In this document: in pieces, positions 11,332 through 31,110 of the stretch
Layout of the letters: each line of letters begins with the position of its first letter
How positions within the stretch are numbered: the stretch's first letter is position 1
Source of the DNA: Escherichia coli
GTDB lineage: Bacteria; Pseudomonadota; Gammaproteobacteria; Enterobacterales; Enterobacteriaceae
DNA length: 64,000 bases
Reading direction: 5' to 3' (one strand)
Assembly: GCF_009931435.1 (NCBI RefSeq)
Contig: NZ_CP043414.1
Notes under the pieces: model-generated
Database searches by the model: none
The model's input: the letters and a program-made list of their open reading frames with translations, nothing else
Told to the model about the DNA's origin: nothing
Made by a program: the position numbers and the translations under genes

Positions 11332-11340
11332 CATTGTCGG

Positions 11341-12810: not shown

Positions 12811-12912
12811 AATTCACATCCTGCCAGTAGAGAGAGAATAATGTAAGAGTTCCCGGAGTGCTGAATGTATTCAGCACTCAATTGCGGTCTGTTTTTTTAA
12901 TTCTTAAATTTA

Positions 12913-13308: not shown

Positions 13309-13311
13309 TCC

Positions 13312-14763
13312 TTAATGTGAGGTCTGCCGGCGCAGGAAGCGTCCCGCACGGCCTGTAATATGTTTATCGCGACCATAGCTCATAACGCCGTTCACCATCA
13401 CCGCCTCAATGCCATCTGCCGGGCGTTTGGGATCAGAAAAGCTGGCAACATCACGAATGGTTTGTGGATCGAACAACACCAGGTCCGCAAAATAACCGAC
13501 TTTCACCAGTCCACGCTGGGGCAGGCGAAAACGGCTGGCAGAAAGCCCGGTCATTTTGTGGATAGCCGTGGTCAGTGGGAATAAGCCTTCATCACGGCAA
13601 TAGTGGCCCAGCACACGAGGGAAGGCGCCCCATAAACGTGGATGCGGCATGGGATCATTGGGCAGGCCGTCAGAGCCAATCATACTGACCGGATAACTCA
13701 ACACTCGGCGGACGTCGCGCTCGTCCATGTTGTAATAGATAGCCCCGGCAGGCATTAGCAGCTTCGCGGCCTCCAGCATACTCATCTGCCAGTCGATGGC
13801 GATTTGCGCCAGTGTTTTCCCGGCCTGCTGCGGATGTGTTTGTGACCAGGTGATCATAATATCGAATTCGTCGGTGACTTGTTTGAGATCCAGCGTTGAA
13901 GAGCTGGCTGAGTAAGGGTAGACATCGCAGCCAATTTCCTGGTGTTGACGCATTTGGTCAAAAAAGGCCAACGTTTCTTTTGTCCGCCCCCAGTTTTTCG
14001 CCCCGGCGCATTTATGATGGGAAACCACGACAGGCACTTTGCCATGACGCCCAATACGAAACGCCTCATCCAGGGCATCGAGAATCGGTTCAAATTCAGA
14101 ACGCAGGTGGGTGGTATAAACGCCCTTCTCACCGGCTAATTCTTCCGCCAGCGCCATGACTTCTTCGGTAGTCGCCTGAAATGCTGTGGCATAGGCCAGC
14201 CCGGAACTTAACCCCAGCGCCCCCTGACTCAACGCCAGACGTAAGTCGGCGCGCATGGCGGCAATTTCATCCGCCGTCGCCGGGCGAAACAGGTCGTCCA
14301 TATGGTTATTACGCAGCGCCGTATGACCAATCAGCGTGCCAACGTTCAGTGACGGCCTGGCTGCTTCCACTGCCTGGGCATAGCTTTCAACGGTAGGATA
14401 AATAAAGTGCTCCGCTTCCCCCAACAGATTCATCGGGTCAGGAACTTCACCTTTCATTTTCGCCGACGCCGCACTGATCCCGCAGTTACCGACAATCACC
14501 GTAGTGATCCCCTGACTGATCTTTGGCAGATATTCCGGGATGCGAATAACGTTGATATCGTCATGGGTATGAACGTCGATAAACCCTGGTGCCAGCACCC
14601 GCCCTTCCCCGTCAATGACCTGCTGCGCCGTAGCGTTAAGCGCAGGGGCAATATCGACAATCCGATCACCTGTTATTGCCACGTCACCGCGAAATTCAGG
14701 GCCGCCGCTACCGTCGATAACGGTCACATTTTTGATTAACCAGTCAACCTGCATGTTCGTCAC
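13312..14763 (-). CDS. N-acyl-D-amino-acid deacylase (D-aminoacylase), amidohydrolase superfamily
   Basis: 483 aa; metal-binding HTHDD motif near N-terminus (GFIDVHTHDD); D-aminoacylase-like overall. Confidence 0.72.
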   Translation of the reverse strand: MTNMQVDWLIKNVTVIDGSGGPEFRGDVAITGDRIVDIAPALNATAQQVIDGEGRVLAPGFIDVHTHDDINVIRIPEYLPKISQGITTVIVGNCGISAASAKMKGEVPDPMNLLGEAEHFIYPTVESYAQAVEAARPSLNVGTLIGHTALRNNHMDDLFRPATADEIAAMRADLRLALSQGALGLSSGLAYATAFQATTEEVMALAEELAGEKGVYTTHLRSEFEPILDALDEAFRIGRHGKVPVVVSHHKCAGAKNWGRTKETLAFFDQMRQHQEIGCDVYPYSASSSTLDLKQVTDEFDIMITWSQTHPQQAGKTLAQIAIDWQMSMLEAAKLLMPAGAIYYNMDERDVRRVLSYPVSMIGSDGLPNDPMPHPRLWGAFPRVLGHYCRDEGLFPLTTAIHKMTGLSASRFRLPQRGLVKVGYFADLVLFDPQTIRDVASFSDPKRPADGIEAVMVNGVMSYGRDKHITGRAGRFLRRQTSH

Positions 14764-14954
14764 TCCATTTCTGCAATGGTGACAAGTTAACCATTTACAA
14801 GGACGAAAAACAGTGGAAAACTACGCAAAACCCAGATGATTTTCTGATACTTTTATTCATAAACTATAAGATAAATAAACTAAATATTTATATTTCATTT
14901 AGTTACAAATGATACTCACATCCGATACGGTGAAAAACTTAAAAGGTAAATGTT

Positions 14955-16175
14955 ATGAAATACCACTCAGAACCTCTGGTTCCCCATAAATCGGCCCTGA
15001 TGCAAATGCCCGCAAATCTCCTTGCCGAAGATGTCTGTTTACCTGCCGCGATCATTAAAAAGCAGGCCCTGGAGAACAACATTACGTGGATGCAGCGTTA
15101 TGCTGACGCGCGCGGCGTTTCGCTGGCACCGCACGGTAAAACCACCATGACGCCGTGGATTTTTCAGGCGCAGCAGGCAGCTGGTGCCTGGGCAATAGGT
15201 GTCGGTAGCGCATGGCAGGCTGGTGCGGCAATGGCGAGCGGTATTCAGCGAGTGCTGATGGTTAACCAGCTGGTCGGCAAGGCGAATATGCAGTTGATTG
15301 CCCAGTTGCAACGACATTACCCGACGGTCGATTTTATCTGCTGTATCGACAGCATTGAGAACGCCCGCGCTTTGTCTGCCTTTTTTGCCAGTCAGCAACA
15401 GACACTGAACGTGATGATTGAGTTGGGTGTCCCCGGCGGACGCTGTGGCTGCCGCTCAACGGATGCCGCACTGGCACTGGCTAAACAGGCGGCCCAATTA
15501 CCAGGGCTACGTCTGCGCGGGCTTGAGTTATATGAAGGTGTTTTACACGGTGACGATCCACAACCGCAGGTAGAAGCACTGCTGCGGGATGCCGCACAAC
15601 TGGCCTGTGATATGGCAAGTCTGGTTGATGGCGAATTTATTCTCACCGGAGCAGGCACGGTCTGGTATGACGTGGTGTGCAATATCTGGCTGGCGGCAGA
15701 AAAGCCTGATAACTGCCGCATTGTTATTCGCCCTGGCTGCTACATCACTCACGACACCGGGATCTACGACGCGGCACAACAACAGTTGCTTGCCCGCGAT
15801 CCTGTGGCCTGCGATCTGGCAGGCGATCTCACATCTGCGCTGGAACTGGTCGCCATGGTGCAATCGGTGCCGGAAGCTGATCGTGCGGTGGTAAATTTTG
15901 GTAAGCGTGATTGCGCCTTCGACGCCGGACTGCCGCAACCAGTCGCCCACTACCGCAACGGCAAATCACTGGCATTTGATCCACAGGCGATTCGCAGTAC
16001 AGGCATTATGGATCAGCACTGCATGTTGCAACTGTCAGCTAATAGCGACGTGCAAGTGGGGGATATTCTGGTGTTTGGCACATCGCATCCGTGCCTGACC
16101 TTCGACAAATGGAAAGCGTTGTTATTGACTGATGACGACTACAACGTACTGGCGGAATTAGACACTCTCTTCTAA
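14955..16175 (+). CDS. PLP-dependent alanine-racemase-fold enzyme, DSD1-like (D-serine / D-threo-hydroxy-amino-acid dehydratase or aldolase type)
   Basis: 406 aa; PHGKTT motif with candidate PLP lysine; divergent from the aminoacylase operon. Confidence 0.65.
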   Translation: MKYHSEPLVPHKSALMQMPANLLAEDVCLPAAIIKKQALENNITWMQRYADARGVSLAPHGKTTMTPWIFQAQQAAGAWAIGVGSAWQAGAAMASGIQRVLMVNQLVGKANMQLIAQLQRHYPTVDFICCIDSIENARALSAFFASQQQTLNVMIELGVPGGRCGCRSTDAALALAKQAAQLPGLRLRGLELYEGVLHGDDPQPQVEALLRDAAQLACDMASLVDGEFILTGAGTVWYDVVCNIWLAAEKPDNCRIVIRPGCYITHDTGIYDAAQQQLLARDPVACDLAGDLTSALELVAMVQSVPEADRAVVNFGKRDCAFDAGLPQPVAHYRNGKSLAFDPQAIRSTGIMDQHCMLQLSANSDVQVGDILVFGTSHPCLTFDKWKALLLTDDDYNVLAELDTLF

Positions 16176-16442: not shown

Positions 16443-18593
16443 ATGGATACTAAAAAGATATTCAAGCACATACCCTGGGTGATTCTTGGAATCATCGGTG
16501 CATTCTGCCTCGCGGTAGTTGCATTACGTCGGGGGGAGCACGTCAGCGCCCTGTGGATCGTGGTCGCCTCTGTGTCGGTGTATCTGGTGGCTTATCGCTA
16601 CTACAGTCTGTACATCGCCCAGAAGGTGATGAAACTCGACCCCACGCGCGCGACGCCTGCGGTTATTAACAATGACGGTCTGAACTATGTTCCGACCAAC
16701 CGTTACGTGTTGTTTGGTCACCACTTCGCCGCTATCGCCGGTGCGGGTCCGCTGGTTGGTCCGGTTCTCGCCGCGCAGATGGGTTACCTGCCTGGCACAC
16801 TGTGGCTGCTGGCGGGGGTAGTGCTGGCCGGTGCGGTACAGGACTTTATGGTGCTGTTTATCTCTTCTCGCCGTAACGGCGCATCTCTCGGTGAGATGAT
16901 CAAAGAAGAGATGGGGCCAGTACCGGGGACTATCGCGCTGTTTGGCTGTTTCTTAATCATGATCATCATCCTCGCCGTTCTGGCGCTGATTGTGGTTAAA
17001 GCCCTGGCCGAAAGTCCGTGGGGGGTCTTCACCGTTTGCTCAACCGTACCGATTGCGCTGTTCATGGGTATCTACATGCGCTTTATCCGTCCGGGGCGTG
17101 TAGGTGAAGTCTCTGTTATTGGTATCGTGCTGCTGGTTGCCTCTATCTACTTCGGTGGCGTGATTGCTCACGATCCGTACTGGGGTCCGGCACTGACCTT
17201 TAAAGACACCACAATTACCTTCGCACTGATTGGCTATGCGTTTGTTTCCGCACTGCTGCCGGTGTGGCTGATCCTCGCACCGCGCGACTATCTGGCAACC
17301 TTCCTGAAAATCGGCGTTATCGTCGGCCTGGCGCTGGGTATCGTGGTGCTGAACCCGGAACTGAAAATGCCTGCGATGACCCAGTACATTGACGGTACTG
17401 GCCCGTTGTGGAAAGGCGCTCTGTTCCCGTTCCTGTTCATCACCATCGCCTGTGGTGCGGTATCTGGCTTCCACGCGCTGATCTCTTCCGGTACAACGCC
17501 GAAATTGCTGGCTAACGAAACCGACGCGCGTTTCATTGGCTACGGCGCAATGCTGATGGAGTCCTTCGTGGCGATTATGGCGCTGGTTGCTGCGTCCATC
17601 ATCGAACCGGGTCTTTACTTCGCGATGAATACCCCGCCTGCGGGCCTTGGCATCACCATGCCTAACCTGCATGAAATGGGTGGCGAGAACGCGCCGATCA
17701 TCATGGCGCAGCTGAAAGACGTTACCGCACACGCGGCAGCGACTGTCAGCTCCTGGGGCTTCGTGATTTCGCCAGAGCAGATCCTGCAAACCGCGAAAGA
17801 CATTGGTGAGCCTTCTGTCCTGAACCGTGCAGGTGGTGCGCCGACGCTGGCGGTAGGTATCGCTCACGTGTTCCACAAAGTGCTGCCGATGGCTGACATG
17901 GGCTTCTGGTATCACTTCGGTATTCTGTTCGAAGCCCTGTTCATCCTGACCGCGCTGGATGCGGGTACCCGTTCTGGCCGCTTTATGCTGCAAGACCTGC
18001 TGGGTAACTTCATCCCGTTCCTGAAAAAAACCGACTCTCTGGTTGCCGGCATCATCGGTACTGCGGGCTGTGTGGGTCTGTGGGGCTACCTGCTGTATCA
18101 GGGCGTGGTCGATCCGCTGGGCGGCGTTAAGAGCCTGTGGCCGCTGTTCGGTATCTCCAACCAGATGCTGGCAGCCGTAGCGCTGGTACTGGGCACCGTT
18201 GTGCTGATTAAGATGAAGCGCACCCAATACATCTGGGTGACTGTTGTTCCGGCTGTATGGCTGCTTATCTGCACCACCTGGGCGCTGGGCCTGAAACTGT
18301 TCAGCACCAACCCGCAGATGGAAGGCTTCTTCTACATGGCAAGCCAGTACAAAGAGAAGATTGCTAACGGTACTGACCTGACGGCACAGCAGATTGCCAA
18401 CATGAACCACATCGTTGTGAACAACTACACCAACGCGGGTCTGAGTATTCTGTTCCTGATTGTGGTGTACAGCATCATCTTCTACGGTTTCAAAACCTGG
18501 CTGAAGGTGCGTAACAGCGACAAACGTACTGACAAAGAAACTCCGTACGTTCCAATCCCGGAAGGCGGCGTGAAGATCTCTTCGCACCACTAA
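16443..18593 (+). CDS. btsT: Pyruvate/H+ symporter BtsT (CstA family)
   Basis: Start chosen at MDTKKIFKHIPWVILG (716 aa); large polytopic CstA-like protein. Confidence 0.9.
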   Translation: MDTKKIFKHIPWVILGIIGAFCLAVVALRRGEHVSALWIVVASVSVYLVAYRYYSLYIAQKVMKLDPTRATPAVINNDGLNYVPTNRYVLFGHHFAAIAGAGPLVGPVLAAQMGYLPGTLWLLAGVVLAGAVQDFMVLFISSRRNGASLGEMIKEEMGPVPGTIALFGCFLIMIIILAVLALIVVKALAESPWGVFTVCSTVPIALFMGIYMRFIRPGRVGEVSVIGIVLLVASIYFGGVIAHDPYWGPALTFKDTTITFALIGYAFVSALLPVWLILAPRDYLATFLKIGVIVGLALGIVVLNPELKMPAMTQYIDGTGPLWKGALFPFLFITIACGAVSGFHALISSGTTPKLLANETDARFIGYGAMLMESFVAIMALVAASIIEPGLYFAMNTPPAGLGITMPNLHEMGGENAPIIMAQLKDVTAHAAATVSSWGFVISPEQILQTAKDIGEPSVLNRAGGAPTLAVGIAHVFHKVLPMADMGFWYHFGILFEALFILTALDAGTRSGRFMLQDLLGNFIPFLKKTDSLVAGIIGTAGCVGLWGYLLYQGVVDPLGGVKSLWPLFGISNQMLAAVALVLGTVVLIKMKRTQYIWVTVVPAVWLLICTTWALGLKLFSTNPQMEGFFYMASQYKEKIANGTDLTAQQIANMNHIVVNNYTNAGLSILFLIVVYSIIFYGFKTWLKVRNSDKRTDKETPYVPIPEGGVKISSHH

Positions 18594-18856: not shown

Positions 18857-19813
18857 ATGAACCCGATTGCAGTTACCCTACTCACCGGTTTTTTAGGCGC
18901 AGGCAAAACCACCCTGCTGCGCCATATTCTTAATGAACAGCACGGCTACAAGATTGCCGTGATTGAAAACGAATTCGGCGAAGTCTCCGTTGATGATCAA
19001 CTGATTGGCGACCGCGCCACGCAGATCAAAACGCTGACCAACGGCTGCATCTGTTGTTCGCGCTCCAACGAGCTGGAGGACGCGCTACTCGACCTGCTGG
19101 ATAATCTCGACAAGGGCAATATTCAGTTCGATCGTCTGGTCATTGAATGCACCGGCATGGCCGATCCCGGCCCGATTATTCAGACCTTTTTCTCCCATGA
19201 GATTTTATGCCAGCGTTACCTGCTGGACGGCGTGATTGCGCTGGTGGATGCGGTACATGCCGATGAGCAGATGAACCAGTTCACCATCGCCCAGTCACAG
19301 GTTGGCTACGCCGACCGCATTCTGCTGACCAAAACCGACGTCGCAGGCGAAGCAGAAAAACTGCGTGAACGCCTGGCACGCATCAACGCCCGCGCACCGG
19401 TCTACACCGTCACCCACGGCGACATCGATCTGGGCCTGCTGTTCAACACCAACGGTTTTATGCTGGAAGAAAACGTCGTCAGCACCAAACCGCGTTTCCA
19501 CTTTATCGCGGATAAACAAAACGATATTTCGTCGATTGTGGTAGAACTGGATTACCCGGTAGATATCAGCGAAGTTTCCCGCGTGATGGAAAACCTGCTG
19601 CTGGAGTCGGCGGATAAACTGCTGCGTTACAAAGGGATGCTATGGATTGACGGCGAACCAAATCGCCTGCTGTTCCAGGGCGTCCAGCGCCTCTACAGCG
19701 CCGACTGGGACCGCCCGTGGGGCGATGAAAAACCGCATAGCACGATGGTGTTTATCGGGATTCAGCTGCCGGAGGAAGAGATTCGGGCTGCGTTTGCGGG
19801 GTTGAGGAAGTAA
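18857..19813 (+). CDS. yjiA: CobW/P47K-family GTPase YjiA
   Basis: Start at MNPIAVTLLTGFLGAGKTTLL (P-loop); 318 aa; ORF-track start at 18773 overlaps yjiX and is rejected. Confidence 0.9.
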   Translation: MNPIAVTLLTGFLGAGKTTLLRHILNEQHGYKIAVIENEFGEVSVDDQLIGDRATQIKTLTNGCICCSRSNELEDALLDLLDNLDKGNIQFDRLVIECTGMADPGPIIQTFFSHEILCQRYLLDGVIALVDAVHADEQMNQFTIAQSQVGYADRILLTKTDVAGEAEKLRERLARINARAPVYTVTHGDIDLGLLFNTNGFMLEENVVSTKPRFHFIADKQNDISSIVVELDYPVDISEVSRVMENLLLESADKLLRYKGMLWIDGEPNRLLFQGVQRLYSADWDRPWGDEKPHSTMVFIGIQLPEEEIRAAFAGLRK

Positions 19814-19827
19814 AATTTCACATTTTT

Positions 19828-19863
19828 CTTAAGCCGGAAGATATATATACCCCACCGGCTTAA
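19828..19863. terminator. Inverted repeat cttaagccgg / ccggcttaag between convergent yjiA and the 249-aa gene
   Basis: 10-bp perfect inverted repeat with 16-nt AT-rich spacer; candidate bidirectional terminator. Confidence 0.35.
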
Positions 19864-19878
19864 GAAAGTGCAATTCTC

Positions 19879-20628
19879 TTATGAAACATCACGAAATACA
19901 CAGGTAAGTTCTTTAGGACTTGCTTTCCATATATGGTCAAAGCCACTCGACAGCATGACTTCTATTTTTCCTTCCGGACTTTCAATTAGTAAATAGCGAT
20001 CATGGCAGTTTGTATATTTGGGATTTGTAGTGATTTGCACACTCCATTCAGGATGGATACAATGAACAAAATTACTATTTATTTTACTTCCGTTTTGGAC
20101 TGCAGCGACACCTACTGCGATTTCTGAAAATTCAATAACAAGCTCTTTTCTAGGTAGTACGGAATGAAATAAGCTGCATGTATTCTCCCAATTCTGTGCA
20201 AAGTAATTATCGCATATAATTACTTTTTTTGCATTGCAACATAGCATTTCCAGATACTTTTTTAAATATATTCTATTATCTGTAGGGCTTAATGTAACGG
20301 TAACTTGATTATTAACCATACCTTTTTTATAATGTACAAAGGGAAGTGATAAATTATCATTCTCAGTAAGGATTATTTTCAACAACGATTTAGATGCTAA
20401 AGTAACAAGATCATCATCACTTTCAGGCTGACTTGCTAACATAGATAAATATTGTCGATATTCTAACTCCGGCATCTTCAATCCTAAATTTCTTGCCTCA
20501 ATCCATTGCCTTTTGTTAGTTAAATAAGGTAGTACTAGTTTTTTATGTAATCTCTTCACCTTATTCTTATCATCCATATTTTCATATGCAACTAATAAAG
20601 ATGTATCAAGAACCATTTGATAAGACAT
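19879..20628 (-). CDS. Hypothetical 249-aa protein, third gene of the DUF262-ATPase operon (candidate effector)
   Basis: ATG at 20628 lies 4 nt after the ATPase stop with GAGG RBS inside the upstream gene; AT-rich; no motif I can assign. Confidence 0.6.
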   Translation of the reverse strand: MSYQMVLDTSLLVAYENMDDKNKVKRLHKKLVLPYLTNKRQWIEARNLGLKMPELEYRQYLSMLASQPESDDDLVTLASKSLLKIILTENDNLSLPFVHYKKGMVNNQVTVTLSPTDNRIYLKKYLEMLCCNAKKVIICDNYFAQNWENTCSLFHSVLPRKELVIEFSEIAVGVAAVQNGSKINSNFVHCIHPEWSVQITTNPKYTNCHDRYLLIESPEGKIEVMLSSGFDHIWKASPKELTCVFRDVS

Positions 20629-20632
20629 TTCT

Positions 20633-21682
20633 TTACCTCATCTTCATCAAATCATCTAAGGTTGCATCAAAAAAACCTAAAGGGAATCCCGTAACATTCT
20701 CTTGCAGATCGGTAAATTTCCCACCTTCATTAACTCTCATCGAGATAAAATCTTTATCCACATCAGGTTTATAATGTACAGAAATATCCTCAGAAGTTAT
20801 AACATCTTCATAAACCAAATACGCAAGTTTATTGATTAAATGTTCACAATGCGTTTCTACAATAATCTGGATACCCTTACTTGCTACAAATGCTAAAAAA
20901 ATTGCCAAATGAGACTGCGCTTTCGGATGCAATTGAATTTCGGGATTTTCTAGCAAAATAAGATCGCCTTTTTTTGCCATCAAACAAATAATCAAAACCT
21001 TTGCAATATAACTCATCCCAGCCCCAAGATTAAGAGGAGAAACATTTCCTTCAAGCTCTTTTAAGGTAAAAGCGACCTTAATCTGGTCACCAACTTTTTC
21101 AGTAACTAATTCAGACGTCGTTCCTGTAATCAGTTTCAACCAATAAGATAATTGATATGCAAGTGTTGTAGATTCGTGAACTTTCACCAGATATTCAGGT
21201 ACTGGCAAATGTTTCATTTTATCAAATGTTGAAAACAAGAATTCTCCTGCAACACCTACTCGACGTTCTGCGGTGGGCACAAATTCTTGTGCCCCCAAGC
21301 GGTTGGCATTCAGATAGAGCAACTCAGGTTCACTACCAGGCACTCTTGGCTCGTATTGATATCCCAGACGACTATCAATTTCGATATTTTCTGAGTTGAG
21401 CGTTAACGAATGAGAATTTTTTTCTGTATCCTGGACTGTTATAACAATAGATTTTGCGTTATTTTTTTTATTTCTAATAACAGGAAAATCAGCTAGAAAT
21501 CGGATAACTTCTTCCATACTATACTGATTAACAGAAGCGCTATTTTTAATTAGTAACATCAATGCCTGAATAACGCTGGATTTACCAGAAGAGTTAGTTC
21601 CAGTTAAAATGGTCAGTGGTGATAACACCAGACTTGTTGAGCCTAAACTTTTAAATCCTTGAATGTTAATATTTGTAAGCAT
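20633..21682 (-). CDS. P-loop ATPase (ABC/AAA_21-like), second gene of the DUF262-ATPase operon
   Basis: Walker A GTNSSGKSS near N-terminus; Walker B-like DLILLENPEIQLHP; start overlaps upstream gene by 17 nt. Confidence 0.75.
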   Translation of the reverse strand: MLTNINIQGFKSLGSTSLVLSPLTILTGTNSSGKSSVIQALMLLIKNSASVNQYSMEEVIRFLADFPVIRNKKNNAKSIVITVQDTEKNSHSLTLNSENIEIDSRLGYQYEPRVPGSEPELLYLNANRLGAQEFVPTAERRVGVAGEFLFSTFDKMKHLPVPEYLVKVHESTTLAYQLSYWLKLITGTTSELVTEKVGDQIKVAFTLKELEGNVSPLNLGAGMSYIAKVLIICLMAKKGDLILLENPEIQLHPKAQSHLAIFLAFVASKGIQIIVETHCEHLINKLAYLVYEDVITSEDISVHYKPDVDKDFISMRVNEGGKFTDLQENVTGFPLGFFDATLDDLMKMR

Positions 21683-22796
21683 TTTTAATCCTTTCCATTA
21701 TTTCCTTCGCAAAATCAAAACGCATATTTACATATTGTGTTGTATCAATTGCACCAGAAAAAATACCAATCTCATCAAAATTATACTTGTATTGTTCAAT
21801 AAGCTGTTTTAATTCAATATTTTTTGATAAAAATTCAAAACTTATCTGACTGAATACCATAACTAACACTTCGAATAATCCCATATTCACTGGTCGCCTT
21901 TTAGCACCTGATTTTGTTGAAAATCTAAATGCTTCTGAACCCAACGCTTTATAGACATTAGTCATACCAGTTATACAAGCATCTTCAACTTCTTCCAGTA
22001 ACTCATCATCAGCTTTTGTATTAATGAATTTCATCGCAGATGCTAAAAAAGCATCAATATCAGACCTAAATTCAACACCTGGCATTTGATTTGTTACAAG
22101 CAAATAAAATCCTACGAACCGCAAAACCAGATATCTGTCTCGCATACGCTCAGATTTTACGCCATTACCTGTTGCAAGCCTGAAAGACTCGTGTTCAGCG
22201 AGATCCTTAATTAACTTTGTGGCCTTGCCTTGATAAAGAGCATGCCGCATTTCCTGTTTATTTAGATTAATACCACTTCGATTTACACGCTCAAAAATAT
22301 TAAATTTCACATATTCAGGTGTTGGGGGTTGAATCACATAAGAATGTAACTGGCAATCTTCAAGCTTTGCTTGTAATAATGGAGGAATATCAGAAAATTT
22401 TTTTCCTCTCAAGTCAGGCAACATAGATAAATCAGTTAAAGAAAATTCATTGTTAACATAGCGTTTCAATGCAGATATTCGTTGTTTGCCATCAATGATT
22501 TGCCTGACACCATTTTCATCCTCAAAAAGATAAATTAATGGAATAGGAATCCCCATTAAAATAGATTCAATTAATTCTGACTGGTGTTTTCTATCCCAGA
22601 CAAGTTTACGCTGAAAATCTGGAGCAAGAACCAGTTGCCCACGAGCTTCGCGACGGAGTAATTCGAAAACACTGGATTGCTCTTTTGCAATTCGAACCTC
22701 AGTATCTGTCCCCATTTGATGCGGATGAGATGTTAACTCAAGCTCTTCTTGATCTTCGAGTTCAATGCTGTCGTTTTCTACATCCGCATTACTCAT
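21666..22796 (-). CDS. DUF262 (ParB/Srx-like) domain protein, first gene of the three-gene operon
   Basis: DUF262 motifs in order: PDFQRKLVW, IIDGKQR (DGQQR-type), NIFERVNRSGINLNKQE; acidic N-terminus; ATG at 22796. Confidence 0.8.
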   Translation of the reverse strand: MSNADVENDSIELEDQEELELTSHPHQMGTDTEVRIAKEQSSVFELLRREARGQLVLAPDFQRKLVWDRKHQSELIESILMGIPIPLIYLFEDENGVRQIIDGKQRISALKRYVNNEFSLTDLSMLPDLRGKKFSDIPPLLQAKLEDCQLHSYVIQPPTPEYVKFNIFERVNRSGINLNKQEMRHALYQGKATKLIKDLAEHESFRLATGNGVKSERMRDRYLVLRFVGFYLLVTNQMPGVEFRSDIDAFLASAMKFINTKADDELLEEVEDACITGMTNVYKALGSEAFRFSTKSGAKRRPVNMGLFEVLVMVFSQISFEFLSKNIELKQLIEQYKYNFDEIGIFSGAIDTTQYVNMRFDFAKEIMERIKNAYKY

Positions 22797-23036
22797 GGTA
22801 AAATTACCTTTAAAAATTTATCGAATTATTTATTCATAAAAATAGGGCGCTGAATCAAAATTTCAGCCCCTTAATCAACATGAATTATACCCTAACTTCC
22901 TTCTTGACTGCGACCTTCACTGCACCATTATGCGAGTTATCTCCAGAACATAATGCTCTCATACCGCCCTAAGTCATAGCCAGGCTATTGATTTTATGTA
23001 CAATCAGAATCGTCCTGATAAAAGCGAGAATACCCC

Positions 23037-25469
23037 ATGGCGGAACTGAACCTAAGTAACCTGACGGAAGCAGACATCATTACCAAATGCGTTATGCCAG
23101 CCATTCTCAATGCAGGCTGGGACAACACAACGCAAATCAGACAGGAGGTCAAACTCCGGGACGGTAAAGTCATCGTACGTGGTAAAGTTGCGGCACGCAG
23201 AACGGTAAAATCTGCTGACATCGTGCTGTATCACAAACCAGGCATTCCCTTAGCCGTGATTGAAGCAAAAGCCAACAAACATGAAATTGGCAAAGGGATG
23301 CAACAGGGCATTGAATATGCGCGCCTGCTGGACGTTCCTTTTGTTTTTGCCACCAACGGGGATGGCTTTATCTTCCGCGATGCCACCGCAGCCGAAGGTG
23401 AATGCCTTGAAAAGCAAATAACGCTGGATGACTTCCCCTCCCCCGCTGAACTCTGGCAAAAATTCTGCCTCTGGAAAGGATACACACAAGCTCAGCTTCC
23501 GGTGATTACTCAGGACTATTACGACGATGGCAGCGGTAAATCGCCACGTTATTACCAGCTTCAGGCAATCAACAAAACCATTGAAGCCGTCTCCAACGGG
23601 CAAAACCGCGTTCTGTTGGTCATGGCGACCGGAACAGGGAAAACCTATACCGCATTCCAGATCATCTGGCGCCTGTGGAAATCAAAAAATAAAAAACGCA
23701 TTCTGTTCCTTGCCGATCGCAACATTCTGGTCGACCAAACCAAAAATAATGATTTCCAGCCATTTGGTACGGCAATGACCAAAGTCAGCGGACGCACCAT
23801 TGATCCCGCTTATGAAATTCACCTCGCGCTCTATCAGGCTATAACTGGCCCGGAGGAAGACCAAAAAGCGTTTAAACAAGTCGCACCAGATTTCTTCGAT
23901 CTGATAGTCATCGACGAATGCCATCGCGGCAGCGCATCCGAAGACAGCGCCTGGCGAGAGATCCTTGATTATTTCAGTTCCGCCACCCAAATTGGCTTAA
24001 CCGCCACGCCAAAAGAGACGCATGAAGTCTCCAGCACGGATTACTTCGGCGATCCGGTTTACGTCTACTCGCTAAAAGAAGGGATCGAAGACGGCTTCCT
24101 CGCCCCTTATAAAGTTGTCCGTGTTGATATTGATGTTGATCTGCAAGGCTGGCGCCCAACCAAAGGGCAAACTGACTTAAACGGCGAAGTGATCGACGAT
24201 CGTATCTATAACCAGAAAGATTTCGATCGCACGATGGTAATCGACGAACGCACAGAACTGGTTGCCAGAACCATTACCGACTACCTCAAGCGCACCAATC
24301 CGATGGATAAAACCATCGTCTTCTGTAACGACATCGATCATGCAGAACGTATGCGCCGCGCCCTGGTTAATCTCAACTCGGAGCAGGTGAAAAAGAACGA
24401 CAAATACGTCATGAAAATCACCGGCGATGATGAAATTGGCAAAGCTCAGTTGGATAACTTCATCAACCCGAAAAAACCGTACCCGGTTATCGCGACCACT
24501 TCAGAGCTGATGACCACCGGTGTGGATGCTAAAACCTGCAAACTGGTAGTACTGGACCAGAACATCCAGTCGATGACCAAATTCAAGCAGATTATCGGTC
24601 GTGGTACACGCATCGACGAACGTTACGGCAAACTCTGGTTTACCATCCTCGACTTTAAAAAAGCCACCGAACTGTTTGCCGATGAGCGTTTCGATGGCAT
24701 TCCCGAAAAAGTCATGGATACCACACCAGAGGATATCACCGATCCAGAATCTGATTTTGAAGAGAAACTCGAAGAAATCAGCGAACATGACGACGAACAG
24801 GTAACGGGCGTTGATGAACCGCCTGCGCCACCATACCAGGTTACCGATACCGATGATGTCGGCCCACTTCCGGAAGAAGACGAGAAGAAAATCCGCAAGT
24901 TTCACGTCAACGGTGTCGCGGTGGGCGTTATTGCGCAGCGTGTTCAGTATTACGATGCCGACGGTAAACTGGTTACCGAATCTTTTAAAGATTACACCCG
25001 CAAAACACTGCTCAAAGAATATGCCTCGCTGGATGACTTTACCCGCAAGTGGCAGGACGCCGATCGCAAAGAAGCGATCATTCACGAGCTGGAGCAACAG
25101 GGGATCATCTGGGAAGTACTGGCAGAAGAAGTCGGTAAAGATCTCGACCCGTTCGACATGCTTTGCCACGTAGTGTATGGTCAGCCGCCGTTAACCCGCA
25201 AAGAGCGCGCCGAGAACGTGCGCAAGCGGAACTACTTCACAAAATACTCTGAAGCAGCGCAAGCCGTGCTCGATAATCTGCTGGATAAATACGCCGATGC
25301 GGGCGTACAGGAGATCGAAAGTATTCAGGTGCTGAAACTTAAACCATTCGACAGCATGGGCACTTTACCGGAGATTATTAAAACCGGATTTGGCGACCGT
25401 AACGGGTATAATCAGGCGCTCAGCGAGCTGGAAAACGAAATCTACCAATTACCGCCCCGCTCTGCTTAA
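23037..25469 (+). CDS. hsdR: Type I restriction enzyme R subunit (HsdR), non-K-12 family (likely IB-like)
   Basis: 810 aa; N-terminal HsdR nuclease region; helicase motif [11 protein letters not shown] and motif [10 protein letters not shown]; hsdR-hsdM-hsdS order. Confidence 0.9.
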
Positions 25470-25499
25470 CAACTCTCTTTTGCGCCTTCTGCAACCATC

Positions 25500-27005
25500 A
25501 TGTTGCAGAAGGCCTTGTTTTTCATGGAATACAACATGTCTATCAGCTCAGTAATCAAATCATTACAAGATATTATGCGCAAAGATGCCGGTGTGGATGG
25601 CGATGCGCAGCGTCTCGGTCAGCTCTCCTGGCTGCTGTTTTTGAAAATCTTCGATGCCCAGGAAGAGGCGCTGGAACTGGAGCAGGATAACTATCAATAT
25701 CCGATCCCACAGCGTTATTTGTGGCGCAGTTGGGCCGCCAACGCGCAGGGCATTACCGGTGATTCCCTGCTGGAATTCGTTAATGATGATCTGTTCCCGG
25801 CGTTGAAAAACCTCACTGCGCCTATCGATAAAAACCCACGCGGCTACGTGGTGAAGCAGGCGTTCAGCGATGCCTATAACTATATGAAAAACGGTACGCT
25901 ACTGCGTCAGGTGATCAACAAGCTGAACGAAATTGACTTTACCAGCGCCAGCGAACGCCATCTGTTTGGTGATATTTACGAACAGATCCTTAAAGATCTG
26001 CAATCTGCGGGCAATGCTGGCGAATTCTATACTCCACGCGCCGTCACTCGCTTTATGGTGGATCGCGTTGATCCGAAACTCGGCGAATCCATTATGGACC
26101 CGGCCTGCGGTACGGGCGGTTTTCTTGCCTGCGCATTTGATCATGTAAAGAACAAATACGTGAAGAGCGTCGCCGATCATCAGACTCTGCAACAACAGAT
26201 CCACGGTGTCGAGAAAAAACAGCTTCCGCACCTGCTGGCGACCACCAATATGCTGCTGCACGGCATTGAAGTACCGGTACAAATTCGTCACGACAACACC
26301 CTGAATAAACCGCTTTCCTCCTGGGATGAGCAACTGGATGTGATTGTTACCAACCCGCCATTTGGTGGCACGGAAGAAGACGGTATTGAGAAGAACTTTC
26401 CGGCAGAGATGCAAACCCGCGAAACGGCGGATCTGTTCCTGCAACTGATTGTGGAAGTACTGGCGAAAAACGGTCGCGCGGCGGTGGTATTGCCGGATGG
26501 CACACTATTTGGCGAAGGCGTTAAAACCAAAATCAAAAAACTGCTTACCGAAGAGTGCAACCTGCATACCATCGTGCGTTTACCGAATGGGGTGTTTAAC
26601 CCCTATACCGGCATTAAAACCAACCTGTTGTTCTTTACCAAAGGTCAGCCAACCAAAGAGATTTGGTTCTATGAGCATCCGTATCCGGCGGGCGTGAAAA
26701 ATTACAGTAAAACCAAGCCGATGAAGTTTGAAGAGTTTCAGGCGGAGATCGACTGGTGGGGGAACGAGGCCGATGGTTTTGCCAGCCGCGTCGAGAATGA
26801 GCAGGCGTGGAAAGTCAGCATTGATGACGTGATTGCGCGTAACTTCAATCTGGATATTAAAAACCCACATCAGGCGGAAACCGTTAGCCATGATCCGGAC
26901 GAGCTGTTAGCGCAGTATGCAAAGCAGCAGGCGGAGATCCAGACGCTGCGTAATCAACTGCGCGATATTCTTGGCGCTGCGCTGTCTGGCAAGGAGGTTA
27001 ACTGA
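25500..27005 (+). CDS. hsdM: Type I restriction-modification N6-adenine methyltransferase subunit (HsdM)
   Basis: AdoMet motif DPACGTGGFL and catalytic NPPFGG; alternative starts at 25524 or 25536; stop overlaps hsdS start by 1 nt. Confidence 0.9.
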   Translation: MLQKALFFMEYNMSISSVIKSLQDIMRKDAGVDGDAQRLGQLSWLLFLKIFDAQEEALELEQDNYQYPIPQRYLWRSWAANAQGITGDSLLEFVNDDLFPALKNLTAPIDKNPRGYVVKQAFSDAYNYMKNGTLLRQVINKLNEIDFTSASERHLFGDIYEQILKDLQSAGNAGEFYTPRAVTRFMVDRVDPKLGESIMDPACGTGGFLACAFDHVKNKYVKSVADHQTLQQQIHGVEKKQLPHLLATTNMLLHGIEVPVQIRHDNTLNKPLSSWDEQLDVIVTNPPFGGTEEDGIEKNFPAEMQTRETADLFLQLIVEVLAKNGRAAVVLPDGTLFGEGVKTKIKKLLTEECNLHTIVRLPNGVFNPYTGIKTNLLFFTKGQPTKEIWFYEHPYPAGVKNYSKTKPMKFEEFQAEIDWWGNEADGFASRVENEQAWKVSIDDVIARNFNLDIKNPHQAETVSHDPDELLAQYAKQQAEIQTLRNQLRDILGAALSGKEVN

Positions 27006-28753
27006 TGAGTGTGGAAAAGCTGATCGTTGATCATATGGAAACCTGGACCTCGGCGTTGCAAACCCGTTCCACCGCCGGGCGCGGCAGTTCCGGAAAAATT
27101 GATTTATATGGCATTAAGAAATTACGTGAGCTGATTCTGGAACTGGCTGTGCGCGGTAAACTGGTGCCGCAGGATCCGAATGATGAACCGGCGTCGGAGC
27201 TGCTGAAGCGTAATGAAGAACGGAAAAAAGAATTAGCGCGCAATAATGGTATGAAAACCACAGCAAGCACTAATATCCATGGAAATGAATATTATATCGA
27301 TACCCCCGAAAAGTGGTCATGGATAAGACTTGGTAATTTAGCTAAATTCATCGATTACCGAGGGAAAACACCACATAAAAAAGAAAATGGTATAAGGCTT
27401 ATAACAGCAAAAAATATCAGAAAGGGCTGTATTGATCTCAATCCAGAAGAATTCATATCTGAAGAAGATTACATATCATGGATGACAAGAGGCTTTCCTA
27501 AATGTGGTGATATTTTATTCACAACTGAAGCACCACTGGGGAATGCAGCGATTATTGATTTAGACGGAAAGTTCGCTCTTGCTCAACGTTCTATCTGTTT
27601 TCAATGGCATACTCCAGAGATAAGCCCTTTTATGCTTATTCAAATCCTGGCGATCCCCTTCCAGTCACAACTAAGTGACAAATCTACAGGCATGACCGCA
27701 ACAGGAATAAAAGCGTCTAAGTTAAAAGAGATCCCTGTTATTTTACCACCTTACCAAGAACAAATACGTATTGTATCCAAAGTACAGGAGTTCATGTCCC
27801 TATGTGACCAACTGGAACAGCAATCCCTGACCACTCTGGACGCACATCAGCAACTGGTTGAAACCCTGTTGGGAACGCTTACAGACAGCCAAAACGCCGA
27901 GGAACTGGCTGAAAACTGGGCGCGTATTAGCGAGCATTTCGACACCCTATTTACCACCGAAGCCAGCGTGGATGCGTTAAAACAGACCATTCTGCAACTG
28001 GCCGTAATGGGCAAACTTGTGCCGCATGATCCGAATGACGAACCAGCCTCTGAACTGCTCAAACGAATTGCGCAGGAAAAAGCTCAACTGGTGAAAGAAG
28101 GAAAAATAAAAAAACAAAAACCGTTGCCGCCGATTAGCGATGAGGAAAAACCTTTTGAACTGCCGGAAGGGTGGGAATGGATTAGACTAGGAAATATTGG
28201 TGAAGTTAAAGGGGGCGGAACCCCAAGTAAAAACAATCCTGATTTTTGGAAAGGTAATATTCCATGGGTTTCACCAAAGGATATGAAGGTTAATTACATC
28301 TCCAAAAGTCAACTAAATATTTCAAAAGAGGCTGTATTGGAGAGTTCAGTACATCTAATTCCTGAAAATAGTCTTATTTTTGTTGTCCGAGGCATGATTT
28401 TAGCCCATACATTCCCCGTAGCAATAACAAAAAAAGAAGTCACTATTAATCAAGATATGAAAGCCATATCAACTAATCAATTAAATACTGATTTTTTAAT
28501 TTACTTACTTAAAGCAAACGAGACTCGAGTAATATGCTTAGTTGACCGCTCCTCTCATGGCACATGTAAACTTGTTTCAGATAAACTTTTCAATTTGGTT
28601 TTACCGTTGCCTCCATTAGAAGAACAATTTCGTATTACAGAACGAATAAATATGCTATTAGCTTATTGTGATAGATTGAAAAATTATATAAATCTAAAAA
28701 AACAAACCCAACTGCACCTTGCAGATGCACTCACTGACGCGGCGATAAACTAA
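27005..28753 (+). CDS. hsdS: Type I restriction-modification specificity subunit (HsdS) with two target-recognition domains
   Basis: 582 aa; duplicated conserved segment LAVRGKLVPQDPNDEPASELLKR / LAVMGKLVPHDPNDEPASELLKR flanking AT-rich variable TRDs. Confidence 0.88.
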   Translation: MSVEKLIVDHMETWTSALQTRSTAGRGSSGKIDLYGIKKLRELILELAVRGKLVPQDPNDEPASELLKRNEERKKELARNNGMKTTASTNIHGNEYYIDTPEKWSWIRLGNLAKFIDYRGKTPHKKENGIRLITAKNIRKGCIDLNPEEFISEEDYISWMTRGFPKCGDILFTTEAPLGNAAIIDLDGKFALAQRSICFQWHTPEISPFMLIQILAIPFQSQLSDKSTGMTATGIKASKLKEIPVILPPYQEQIRIVSKVQEFMSLCDQLEQQSLTTLDAHQQLVETLLGTLTDSQNAEELAENWARISEHFDTLFTTEASVDALKQTILQLAVMGKLVPHDPNDEPASELLKRIAQEKAQLVKEGKIKKQKPLPPISDEEKPFELPEGWEWIRLGNIGEVKGGGTPSKNNPDFWKGNIPWVSPKDMKVNYISKSQLNISKEAVLESSVHLIPENSLIFVVRGMILAHTFPVAITKKEVTINQDMKAISTNQLNTDFLIYLLKANETRVICLVDRSSHGTCKLVSDKLFNLVLPLPPLEEQFRITERINMLLAYCDRLKNYINLKKQTQLHLADALTDAAIN

Positions 28754-28899: not shown

Positions 28900-28980
28900 T
28901 TTAGCGCGGTGCGAATGTGCGCCAACACACCCGCACCGCTCATCACAATCCCTATTTCACGAGAATAGTAATCATGACTG
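28900..28980 (-). ncRNA. symR: Putative SymR antisense sRNA (antitoxin of SymE), approximate coordinates
   Basis: Inferred from established symE/SymR arrangement (cis-antisense RNA over the symE 5' UTR and start codon); ends not determinable by eye. Confidence 0.3.
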
Positions 28981-29315
28981 ACACGCATTCTATTGCACAA
29001 CCGTTCGAAGCAGAAGTCTCCCCGGCAAATAACCGTCAATTAACCGTGAGTTATGCGAGCCGCTACCCGGATTACAGCCGTATTCCCGCCATCACTCTGA
29101 AAGGTCAGTGGCTGGAAACCGCCGGTTTTACCACCGGCACGGCGGTAGATGTCAAAGTGATGGAAGGCTGTATTGTCCTCACCGCCCAACCACCCGCCGC
29201 CGAGGAGAGCGAACTGATGCAGTCACTGCGCCAGGTGTGCAAACTGTCAGCGCGTAAACAGAAGCAGGTGCAGGAGTTTATTGGGGTGATTGCCGGTAAA
29301 CAGAAAGTCGCCTGA
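28974..29315 (+). CDS. symE: SOS-induced type I toxin SymE
   Basis: Translation from ATG 28974 ([34 protein letters not shown]..., 113 aa) matches SymE; ORF-track start 28917 rejected. Confidence 0.9.
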
Positions 29316-29361: not shown

Positions 29362-31110
29362 TTATACCAACGCGCTCTCCATCTGTTTTTCAAATGCCTG
29401 ACGGATTAATCCCATAATGTAAGGAAGTTGTGCGAGGTCGCTGAAACCAATTTCTACATCGCCATTGCCCCAGCGCCCAACATTTGTCACATCTTTGGCA
29501 ATACCTTTCGGATCGACCAGTTCATGAAACTGCATATTAAGCGACAATCGCAGTCGGCTTTTTTGCGGCACAACATCAACAAAATTCGTTTCCGCTTTAA
29601 ACGCAATATAGAGCTTCAATACTTCCTGCGTGATCCCTGCGTCCAGGCGCAAAACTTCATCGCTAAGATGATCGAATAACACCCGGCTATGCGAACCATC
29701 AGCAAGAAAAGGATAATCACTCAGGCTGTAACTGGTTTTGTTTTCCGGCTGCCCCCGATAAACAGCTAAAACCTCTTCAGGAAGAGAAGGCGCTTGCCAG
29801 ACCTGAACCGCGAGATCGGCCAGACGATCGGCTCGGGCGTGAATGGCAGCTTCATCCCATTTTTCGCACTGTCCAAGACCGATATTCAAATAAAGCGGGC
29901 TATGCTTAAAGCCGTCTTCAATATCGCGTTTTTCCGCGAAAGGTCTGTCACTGTAGCGGGAGTTATAGCGCGTTAAAGTGAGATTCCCCAACGTATGCAA
30001 CAATTCTTTATGAATACGCTGCCAGTCGCTTCCCAGCTCTTCGCGCCATTTAGCCGACAAATTTTCGTTCTGCGGCATAATGTGCTCAATCGTAAACTCT
30101 TCCACGCGCTCTCTGCGTTTATTGTTTTCCAGTCGTCGTAACCAGTAACTGCGACTGCGGAAGTTATAGAGATCGCGAACTTTTAATTCCCGTTTAAATT
30201 CATCATCGTTGGGGAAACGACGATATGAAGGTAGATTCAGAAAATGTACCTGAATACTTTCCAGATAATTTTCTTTATTAATAACTTTATAAAAAGTGGC
30301 AAACGTCTTGTTAAGAGAATTTGTTGGAATCGCACATACTGCACGGCGGAAAACATAAGATTCAATTAAACGAATTATGCTCAGGAAATCTTCACGAGAC
30401 AAAACGCCATTTTTATAGTCATGATAAAGCGCCAGTAAGAAAGGATACGCCACATCGACTTTTAACTCGCGCAAATCCTGAAAAGCCGTAGCAAGCGATT
30501 TGTCACTTTCTTTTCCCAATGCCATTGCACAGTAATACTCCGCGTAGATGTGAATATCTTCAACCAGCCGATCTACGCCTTTTTCAGCAACACTCTGGCT
30601 ACGGGCATGGAGTTTAAAAGCCTCATAGACTTCATCTGTCCGAGGGATCTCCCCCGTTTTTACCGTCAGATAATGACGCATAAAACTGTCAAAATATTCG
30701 CTGTAACCTTGCTGACCAAAGGCGACTTCCATGGGTCGCCAGTGATCTTCATACAACCGGGTTTGATGCTCTGGTTCGAGACCCATCAGAATAAAATTGC
30801 GCACCAGATCGGCCTGACTTAACGCCTTACCGGTGGAGTTCATACTTTCAAAAATCAGTTGCGGATTATCCTGACCACGATTAAGCGCCACATCGACAAT
30901 TAATAACTTTGCTAACCCACGACATAAGGGGATCAAGTCATCACCGAGTTTGGCAATTTGTTCATCAAAGAAAGTAAAGTTTTCCATTATTCGATGGGAA
31001 TAGTTTTCTGGCATTGGTCTTTGTTTTATTAACGCCAGCAAACTGTCTTTATCAGTCTCGGTAAGCAGTAATTTAAATCCTTTCTCGCCGGACTCATAAG
31101 GATTGAGCAA
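29362..31110 (-). CDS. GmrSD-family-like protein (DUF262 C-terminal portion plus DUF1524/HNH), probably 5'-truncated; candidate type IV restriction remnant
   Basis: C-terminal region has EHIMPQNENLSAKWREELG (DUF1524 His-Me type); N-terminal region has only the distal DUF262 motif (IFESMNSTGKALSQADLVRNF); first in-frame codon is TTG with a stop 8 codons upstream. Confidence 0.6.
   Translation of the reverse strand: MLNPYESGEKGFKLLLTETDKDSLLALIKQRPMPENYSHRIMENFTFFDEQIAKLGDDLIPLCRGLAKLLIVDVALNRGQDNPQLIFESMNSTGKALSQADLVRNFILMGLEPEHQTRLYEDHWRPMEVAFGQQGYSEYFDSFMRHYLTVKTGEIPRTDEVYEAFKLHARSQSVAEKGVDRLVEDIHIYAEYYCAMALGKESDKSLATAFQDLRELKVDVAYPFLLALYHDYKNGVLSREDFLSIIRLIESYVFRRAVCAIPTNSLNKTFATFYKVINKENYLESIQVHFLNLPSYRRFPNDDEFKRELKVRDLYNFRSRSYWLRRLENNKRRERVEEFTIEHIMPQNENLSAKWREELGSDWQRIHKELLHTLGNLTLTRYNSRYSDRPFAEKRDIEDGFKHSPLYLNIGLGQCEKWDEAAIHARADRLADLAVQVWQAPSLPEEVLAVYRGQPENKTSYSLSDYPFLADGSHSRVLFDHLSDEVLRLDAGITQEVLKLYIAFKAETNFVDVVPQKSRLRLSLNMQFHELVDPKGIAKDVTNVGRWGNGDVEIGFSDLAQLPYIMGLIRQAFEKQMESALV

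Follow-up and report, generated by a model that had tools for sequence, protein, structure and literature searches.

A type IB (EcoAI-family) restriction-modification operon with a mosaic HsdS in the immigration control region of an Escherichia coli chromosome, next to a Menshen cassette and a truncated GmrSD-family gene

Introduction

The presence of type IB restriction-modification (R-M) systems within Escherichia coli's immigration control region (ICR) is textbook knowledge (PMC3874165, PMC2481252); the genes mcrBC and mrr, too, classically belong to this region (PMC3874165). The prototype of the family is EcoAI of E. coli 15T-, and its relatives include EcoAO83I/Eco377I (E. coli A0 34/86, strain 536) as well as the systems of CFT073 and O157:H7. 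Type I families are delimited by the identity of their HsdR and HsdM subunits, which exceeds 90% within a family and amounts to 17–33% between families (PMC2481252); EcoEI is an exception to the 90% rule for HsdR, at 77%, and compared with EcoKI the subunits of other families show 17–26% (HsdR) and 25–33% (HsdM) identity. Complementation with EcoAI subunits and an anti-EcoAI antibody have proven that EcoAO83I is of type IB, and its identity to EcoAI is 99% for HsdR and 98% for HsdM; the HsdR and HsdM of the CFT073 and 536 systems are in turn 99% identical to those of EcoAO83I (PMC2481252). Here we analyze a stretch of 64,000 nucleotides of an E. coli chromosome (assembly GCF_009931435.1, contig NZ_CP043414.1), hereafter called the window, in which the genes hsdR, hsdM and hsdS occupy positions 23037–28753. 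With a probability of about 0.9, we read this locus as a type IB ICR that has a mosaic HsdS, lacks mcrBC and mrr, and carries a cassette of the Menshen defence system (NsnABC) together with a most likely non-functional gene of the GmrSD family.

Results

The hsdRMS operon

The window is a chromosomal segment that holds the ICR in a common type IB haplotype. Indeed, LgoT, Tsr, BtsT, YjiX, YjiA, SymE, YjiS and YjiR of K-12 are all recovered by tblastn with 95–100% identity and in the K-12 order, and hsdR-hsdM-hsdS are placed between yjiA and symE/yjiS. The first gene, hsdR (23037–25469, plus strand), is intact and encodes a restriction subunit of 810 residues, which reaches 1193.8 bits, against a curated cut-off of 550, on the NCBIfam equivalog NF046051 for subunit R of EcoAI/FtnUII-family type I restriction enzymes and aligns over residues 1–810 with positions 1–807 of the 807 of the PADLOC profile REase_I. 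Its motifs comprise the nuclease signature D61...E76-A-K78, GTGKT at residue 199, DECH at 293 and QIIGR at 518; the Pfam domain EcoEI_R_C is recorded for an identical protein, and the closest solved structure is 3H1T, a fragment from Vibrio vulnificus (E = 9.6e-159). The second gene, hsdM (25536–27005, plus strand), is equally intact and encodes an N6-adenine methyltransferase subunit of 489 residues in which DPACGTGGF (motif I) stands at 188 and NPPF (motif IV) at 273. HsdR is 99.5–99.6% identical to the HsdR of CFT073 and 536, against 27.1% for EcoKI of K-12, and the corresponding values for HsdM are 99.4–99.8% and 28.6%. Each of the three Hsd subunits spans its PADLOC type I profile from one end to the other.

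The start of hsdM deserves comment. The open reading frame (ORF) counted from its first ATG runs from 25500 to 27005 on the plus strand and would give 501 residues, but the real start is likely the ATG at 25536, because the match to the family profiles sets in only at residue 13 of the longer ORF (positions 1–490 of the 491 of PADLOC MTase_I PDLC03021, E = 2e-214), because the 489-residue form is used in most public annotations, and because the ATG at 25500 sits in the loop of a terminator-like hairpin. This hairpin (25484–25513, plus strand) is the strongest of the region and lies just 3' of hsdR; it has a 12-bp stem with 7 G-C pairs, a 6-nt loop and the T-rich tail CTTGTTTTTC, and it encloses the in-frame ATG at 25500 from which some public annotations start their 501-residue HsdM. 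Since it leaves only about 20 nt before hsdM, either the promoter of hsdMS must lie inside hsdR or the hairpin must be read through. At the other end of the gene, the junction AAC-TGA-TG makes the stop codon of hsdM (TGA, 27003–27005) and the start codon of hsdS (ATG, 27005–27007) share one base.

These results agree with the initial annotation of this stretch, made from the letters and a list of ORFs, which had placed an HsdR of 810 residues and an HsdS of 582 residues within 23037–28753, in R-M-S order, with an HsdM of about 490–500 residues and a 1-nt overlap between hsdM and hsdS. Its proposal that type IB, EcoAI-like genes replace here the type IA genes of EcoKI as alleles is borne out by the NF046051 score, by the 99.4–99.8% identity to the CFT073 and 536 subunits and by the shared framework genes; near-identity to the EcoKI subunits, which it had named as an observation that would speak against it, is not seen. 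HsdR, HsdM, the low cross-family identity, the organization of HsdS, and the ICR position with its R-M-S order are all as in type IB, whereas the comparison with the EcoKI family (type IA) gives 27–29% identity and an HsdR of 810 instead of 1170 residues. The sequence data thus support the reading of hsdRMS as an intact EcoAI-family operon at the ICR. Such operons are by no means rare: the hsd region is matched in 999 of 5,426 complete E. coli genomes (about 18%), 80% or more of its length being covered in 759 of these, and the identity is almost always 95–99%. Moreover, a contig of assembly GCA_002965045.1 differs from the window by 2 mismatches across 17.8 kb, and every protein of the locus is already present, residue for residue, in public assemblies; in kind, its biology is already described in the literature.

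Mosaic organization and predicted specificity of HsdS

The type IB HsdS subunits described so far follow the arrangement D2-S1-D1-S2, with a long conserved N-terminus, a central conserved region and a direct repeat starting at about residues 50 and 325 (PMC3874165, PMC2481252). The product of hsdS (27005–28753, plus strand), a protein of 582 residues aligned in full with positions 1–589 of the 589 of PADLOC Specificity_I PDLC03179 (E = 9.6e-219), shows this organization in both domain order and internal repeat: an N-terminal conserved region (residues 1–75) is followed by a first target recognition domain (TRD1, 76–255), a central conserved region (256–390), a second one (TRD2, 391–570) and a short C-terminal conserved region (571–582), and residues 36–125 are 46% identical to residues 321–409.

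When HsdS homologs, labelled P0082–P0093, were compared domain by domain, the two TRDs were found to have different relatives. TRD1 (27230–27769, plus strand) is 99% identical to TRD1 of P0087, P0089, P0092 and P0093, and the TRD2 of these four proteins is only 17–21% identical to that of the window. TRD2 (28175–28714, plus strand) is 99–100% identical to TRD2 of P0082–P0086, P0088 and P0091, whose TRD1 shows only 17–23% identity. Strains with the donor-type TRD1 include those of NZ_CP015229.1 and NZ_OZ282453.1, and strains with the donor-type TRD2 include N96 and that of NZ_CM169999.1. Among the homologs compared, both TRDs occur together only in near-identical variants of this HsdS allele; the exact protein, rarer than the identical HsdR and HsdM, is known from 18 contigs and has its 90%-identity cluster to itself, and a handful of near-identical variants exist as separate entries. 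This pattern identifies HsdS as a natural recombinant in which a TRD1 and a TRD2 from two E. coli allele groups are joined in the conserved central region. Exchange of TRDs is a classical route to new type I specificities (PMC3874165).

As for the target itself, the TRDs were compared with two reference alleles, that of CFT073 (EcoAI-like, 589 residues) and that of 536 (an EcoAO83I isoschizomer, GGAN8ATGC). TRD1 is 21% identical to the TRD1 of both, and TRD2 18–25% identical to their TRD2. Because both TRDs are only 18–25% identical to those of CFT073 and 536, the predicted target is neither the EcoAI-like specificity of CFT073 nor that of EcoAO83I. It is in this sense, and only in this sense, that the different type I specificity expected by the initial annotation is confirmed. 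In a search of PDB sequences, TRD2 aligned with the HsdS of EcoR124II, a type IC enzyme, at its C-terminal TRD (half-site RTCG; E = 4.4e-33), with roughly 50% identity over the first 100 residues or so, as counted by hand from the alignment; this likeness across families might hint at the 3' half-site, but is too weak for calling it. Since TRD1 and TRD2 come from different existing allele groups, the hybrid HsdS should recognize the half-site of the TRD1 donor joined to the half-site of the TRD2 donor. The mosaic may specify a bipartite site outside the characterized type I specificities, which is the weaker of the two novel elements considered here.

According to the general type I mechanism (PMC3874165), HsdS would position two HsdM subunits, its TRD1 being responsible for the 5' half-site and its TRD2 for the 3' one. 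The resulting M2S1 core would methylate one adenine per half of the bipartite target set by the TRDs, and modified or hemimethylated sites would be left alone or methylated. EcoAI itself reportedly methylates de novo. Unmodified sites would recruit two HsdR subunits (R2M2S1), leading to ATP-driven translocation of DNA and to cutting far from the site.

Absence of mcrBC and mrr

At E ≤ 0.01, nothing in the 64-kb window is matched in tblastn by McrB, McrC, Mrr, YjiT or the translation of the yjiV pseudogene of K-12. As a control, the K-12 locus yields every one of these genes with the same probes (100% hits), whereas four reference type IB ICRs (N96, 2017-02-2CC, CFT073 and 536) yield none. The absence of mcrBC and mrr, which the initial annotation had stated and which an mcrBC homolog in the window would have contradicted, is thus real; it is normal for the type IB haplotype and no peculiarity of this strain. 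What that annotation overlooked is that neither slot is empty, the place of mrr being taken by a Menshen cassette and that of mcrBC by a GmrSD-family gene with a 5' deletion; therefore it does not follow that the host presents fewer barriers to incoming DNA.

In E. coli, at least four different contents can fill the slot between yjiA and hsdR. It holds mrr in K-12 (16950–17864 of our comparison locus L001), NsnABC in the window (19814–23036), a 550-residue DUF262 protein in CFT073 and 536 (46396–48048 of L010), and two hypothetical genes of 63 and 322 residues in N96 and 2017-02-2CC (4361–5560 of L003). The sequence that type IB strains have in common upstream of hsdR amounts to only about 74 bp.

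The Menshen cassette in the mrr slot

Three minus-strand genes in the order nsnC-nsnB-nsnA (19879–22796) fill the yjiA-hsdR slot, in an island whose G+C content is 32–37% across positions 20001–23000. The first, nsnC (19879–20628), encodes an effector-type subunit of 249 residues, of which residues 1–248 align with positions 1–241 of the 242 of PADLOC NsnC PDLC03880 (E = 2.2e-71); it has no Pfam match. It is followed by nsnB (20633–21682), which encodes an ABC/AAA_15-type ATPase of 349 residues matching PADLOC NsnB in full length (E = 1.5e-78), with a Walker A motif (GTNSSGKS) at residue 28 and a Walker B motif (LILLEN) at 241 that ends in an EN dyad, a variant already described for NsnB (Li et al., PMC12065111). 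The third, nsnA (21666–22796), encodes a ParB-DUF262 sensor-type subunit of 376 residues (residues 8–371 against positions 21–383 of the 385 of PADLOC NsnA, E = 2e-110); its motifs I and II read QRKLVW (at 62) and DGKQR (at 102), and Pfam GmrSD_N is recorded for an identical protein. The cassette thus combines, in a single operon, the QRxxxW and DGxQR motifs of NsnA, the Walker A and EN-type Walker B motifs of NsnB, and NsnC.

In the bioinformatic model of Li et al. (PMC12065111), NsnA is the sensor, NsnB the transducer and NsnC the effector; anti-phage activity of Menshen has been validated experimentally in Solibacillus silvestris, and an association with type I R-M systems has been described in general terms (PMC12065111, Fig. 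7). By its full-length matches and motifs, NsnABC of the window is probably an active defence system.

No near match to the Nsn island exists in the 5,426 complete RefSeq genomes of E. coli, where only the last 74 bp before hsdR are matched. An identical NsnA is present in 575 blocks of a wider collection, including the GenBank chromosomes CP027520.1 and OZ038830.1, and the cassette takes the same position beside a type IB hsdR in all ten other contexts examined, which carry HsdS alleles of 580, 583 or 584 residues and have differing upstream backgrounds. Because identical NsnA is that widespread and the position is the same in ten of ten contexts, the cassette is an uncommon but established ICR haplotype and not a new one. 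Its constant place upstream of and divergent from the type IB hsdR, in ten of ten cases and with several HsdS alleles, also raises the idea that Menshen could be coupled to the type IB methyltransferase, NsnA reading the methylation set by HsdMS, so that the two would form one two-layer system instead of being mere neighbours in a hotspot; we regard this as a long shot.

The truncated GmrSD-family gene in the mcrBC slot

The slot between symE and yjiS, which in K-12 contains mcrC-mcrB-yjiV-yjiT, is occupied in the window by a 5'-truncated gene of a GmrSD-family type IV restriction enzyme (29362–31110, minus strand). Its product matches Pfam GmrSD_C (E = 4.8e-26) and DUF5655, and only positions 102–198 of the 199 of the GmrSD_N (DUF262) model; likewise, the PADLOC match starts at profile position 104. 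The gene keeps residues 114–697 of the intact 697-residue protein, with 98.6% identity; an in-frame deletion of 378 bp has taken away its start codon together with the codons for residues 1 to about 113. The HNH-type (D/E/H)HxxP nuclease signature of DUF1524 is present (EHIMP at residue 342 of the 582-residue ORF), whereas the QRxxxW and DGQQR motifs that mark the DUF262 domain of the family are missing from the window gene; in the intact protein they correspond to QRTYSW (residue 24) and DGQQR (residue 78), both inside the deleted 378 bp. The junction of the deletion is located at 31110–31117, in the 8-bp overlap of two aligned pieces: a blastn comparison with 2017-02-2CC aligns query 1–1802 and 1795–2199 with subject 1–1802 and 2173–2577, respectively.

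Assemblies L004–L009 share an identical HsdS with the window, and the assemblies with this HsdS are all at least 99.97% identical to it, whether their GmrSD gene is intact or deleted. The deletion is common to the draft assemblies L004 and L009 and to about 14 similar places, and is absent in the sisters L005–L008; among the listed top hits from the 5,426 complete genomes, none matches the junction in a single piece. A deletion private to this strain is thereby ruled out. Since the window and the sisters with an intact gene are at least 99.97% identical, the deletion is recent.

Recurrent inactivation of the gene, which the annotated products of 697, 582 and 387 residues and one missing call could have suggested, was likewise considered and rejected, tblastn revealing an intact frame of 697 codons in L005–L008, N96, 2017-02-2CC, CFT073 and 536. 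There are only two real states of the gene, and the 387-residue and pseudogene or missing calls are annotation artefacts. It may be noted here that RefSeq splits the ICR copy into a 'DUF262 pseudogene, missing C-terminus' and a 387-residue coding sequence, in a way that looks systematic; the loci concerned are 12047–14140 of L003 (2017-02-2CC), 37679–39772 of L010 (CFT073), 31991–34084 of L011 (536) and 15329–17422 of L002 (N96).

GmrSD homologs replacing McrBC at this position of the ICR have already been described, for example APECO1_2080 and ECP_4674 (PMC4437046), and in BrxU, a distant family member, mutations in the DGQQR motif lead to a loss of both phage defence and the cleavage of DNA (PMC8565348). 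Because its start codon and its DUF262 nucleotide-binding motifs are lost, the truncated gene is, by analogy, most likely non-functional, while it is intact in the closest sisters.

Framework genes and other features of the window

The left framework gene of the ICR, yjiA (18857–19813, plus strand; 318 residues), is 99.4% identical to K-12 YjiA and scores 683 bits on the NCBIfam GTPase model PRK11537. On the right side, symE (28974–29315, plus strand; 113 residues) is 94.7% identical to K-12 SymE (228 bits on NCBIfam PRK13605, whose cut-off is 132). That it follows hsdS, as first noticed in the initial annotation, is correct, at a distance of 220 nt within which lies symR (28903–28979, minus strand), the antisense small RNA antitoxin, recognized by Rfam RF01809 over positions 1–77 of the 77 of the model with 88.9 bits (gathering score 61). 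The overlap of symR with the start of symE at 28974 is that of the SymE/SymR type I toxin-antitoxin pair. Further on, yjiS (31174–31338, minus strand; 54 residues) and yjiR (31515–32927, plus strand; 470 residues) are 98.1% and 98.5% identical to their K-12 counterparts.

Outside the ICR proper, the tsr-btsT interval (10426–16175, about 6 kb) contains genes for a regulator of the RpiR/HexR type, a sodium/solute symporter, an amidohydrolase and a 406-residue protein with a weak match to a 3-hydroxy-D-aspartate aldolase model. This interval is a second variable spot beside the ICR, being empty in K-12 and containing the hpa cluster in other strains. Downstream of yjiL, an island of 36–42% G+C encodes a pentapeptide-repeat protein of 696 residues (39771–41861, plus strand) that also exists in strain 2017-02-2CC and matches no defence model. 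Between a yjiJ-like gene and kptA, an ORF of 1746 codons (44419–49659, plus strand) has an N-terminal part that scores 1135 bits on the inverse autotransporter adhesin model IatC, below its cut-off of 2400, and also matches intimin/invasin models; no counterpart is annotated at this place in CFT073 and 536. A 303-residue ORF in a stretch of 38–40% G+C (54931–55842, plus strand) has no NCBIfam or PADLOC match, and ten other large or low-G+C ORFs of the window have no PADLOC defence match.

Discussion

Several observations weigh against the interpretation of this locus as a type IB ICR with the attributes listed above, and they concern function more than identity. The expression, restriction activity, methylation and recognition sequence of the locus are all predicted here from the DNA alone. 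The system is assigned to type IB by sequence criteria, the classical ones being complementation, antibody cross-reaction and the 9-bp spacing of methylated adenines. A scan for promoters of hsdR and hsdMS gave no more than chance would (10, with 9.9 expected), and a terminator-like hairpin stands only about 20 nt upstream of hsdM. The absence of mcrBC and mrr holds for the 64-kb window, and copies may be located elsewhere in the genome; the activity of Menshen has been validated experimentally only for a distant homolog, and the presumed inactivity of the GmrSD remnant is extrapolated from BrxU, a distant member of the family.

The alternative that survives best, although we consider it rather improbable, is that mcrBC, mrr or other type IV enzymes are encoded elsewhere in the genome, in which case the host would not be Mcr-minus and Mrr-minus in spite of the composition of its ICR. 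The window covers only 64 kb, and McrA of K-12, for instance, is encoded outside the ICR. The other large or low-G+C ORFs of the window match no defence model. Moreover, some E. coli strains carry a prophage-borne GmrSD besides the ICR copy (PMC4437046), whereas mcrBC and mrr themselves are classically ICR genes (PMC3874165). Thus, of the Mcr-minus and Mrr-minus host announced by the initial annotation, the part that stands is the absence of mcrBC and mrr from the window, while the part that bears on the whole genome, including McrA and type IV enzymes at other places, extends beyond it.

That the type IB operon is silent or inactive, either through decay or with a phenotype reduced to methylation, seems unlikely to us. 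The lack of a promoter signal above chance would fit such a state, and inactivating missense changes would be invisible in a sequence; on the other hand, the three ORFs are of full length with respect to their profiles, their motifs are intact, and identical HsdR and HsdM proteins are found in public data in 164 and at least 1000 contigs, respectively, which suggests conserved and maintained alleles. In addition, the close relative EcoAO83I, 99% identical in HsdR and HsdM by way of 536, is functional (PMC2481252).

Slightly less credible still is the expression of the truncated GmrSD gene from an internal start as a type IV nuclease, by which the host would keep modification-dependent restriction at the position of mcrBC. 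In favour of it, the frame is open over 582–590 codons with the HNH-type DUF1524 domain and DUF5655, has accumulated no stops, and offers in-frame ATGs at codons 41, 50 and beyond in the stop-to-stop segment. Yet the deletion has removed the native start, the region upstream of it and motifs I (QRxYxW) and II (DGQQR) of DUF262, and the open frame is uninformative because the deletion is very recent, as judged from the identity of at least 99.97% to the sisters with an intact gene. Finally, the assignment of the hsd genes to type IA (K-12) or to another family (IC, ID or IE) is already refuted by profile scores and by the identities to CFT073 and 536, since the distant homology to EcoKI HsdR and HsdM (E of about 1e-42) is what any type I system would show, whereas the identity to EcoKI is only 27–29% with an HsdR of 810 against 1170 residues, the EcoAI/FtnUII equivalog cut-off is passed more than twofold while the score on the type I endonuclease model PRK11448 is 217 bits (cut-off 729), the identity to the CFT073 and 536 subunits of type IB is 99%, and the gene order is R-M-S and not the M-S-R of type IC.

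If the locus is what we take it to be, a type IB ICR with a mosaic HsdS, without mcrBC and mrr and with a Menshen cassette on one side and a truncated GmrSD-family gene on the other, those who transform or phage-type this lineage should expect an EcoAI-family type I barrier and a Menshen system that is, going by its genes, probably active, and should expect no ICR-encoded McrBC or Mrr restriction. DNA from K-12 would have no protection from the type IB enzyme, whereas DNA carrying 5-methylcytosine or N6-methyladenine would escape attack by McrBC or Mrr encoded at the ICR. The locus is also an example of the cassette-like variation of the ICR, with at least four contents of the mrr slot and a diversification of HsdS by swapping of TRDs. 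Its value is practical and not conceptual, and current understanding is unchanged.

Comparison with known systems

With the Menshen system of Solibacillus silvestris (Millman et al. 2022; PMC12065111), the cassette of the window shares the operon of three genes, the full-length Nsn matches, the motifs and the neighbourhood of a type I R-M system. It differs in its place of insertion, which is the mrr slot of the ICR; we did not find this location described in the literature examined. The gene in the mcrBC slot resembles the GmrSD/BrxU family in its GmrSD_N and GmrSD_C domains and in its position downstream of symE in type IB ICRs, and the copies of CFT073 and 536 are about 99% identical to the part that is kept in the window. 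It departs from the family in lacking residues 1 to about 113 with the start codon and DUF262 motifs I and II, and in possessing a C-terminal DUF5655 domain in addition; no biochemical characterization of an ICR GmrSD copy was found in the literature examined.

The EcoKI-type ICR of K-12 (mrr-hsdRMS-symE-mcrCB) has in common with the window its chromosomal position, the R-M-S order and the framework genes btsT, yjiX, yjiA, symE/symR, yjiS and yjiR. Its HsdR and HsdS measure 1170 and 464 residues, in agreement with the sizes given in the initial annotation, against 810 and 582 in the window, and it contains mrr, mcrB, mcrC, yjiT and yjiV, none of which is found here. Much closer are the EcoAI relatives of CFT073 and 536, which are located at the same place of the ICR between yjiA and yjiS, in the same R-M-S order, with an HsdR of 810 and an HsdM of 489 residues, and whose HsdS proteins have conserved regions 92–100% identical to those of the window and the same type IB internal repeat; symE and a GmrSD-family gene follow downstream, and mcrBC and mrr are absent there as well. 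Three differences set the window apart from these relatives: the TRDs of HsdS are unrelated to theirs (18–25% identity), the mrr slot is filled by NsnABC and not by a 550-residue DUF262 protein, and the GmrSD gene, intact in both, has here lost its 5' part.

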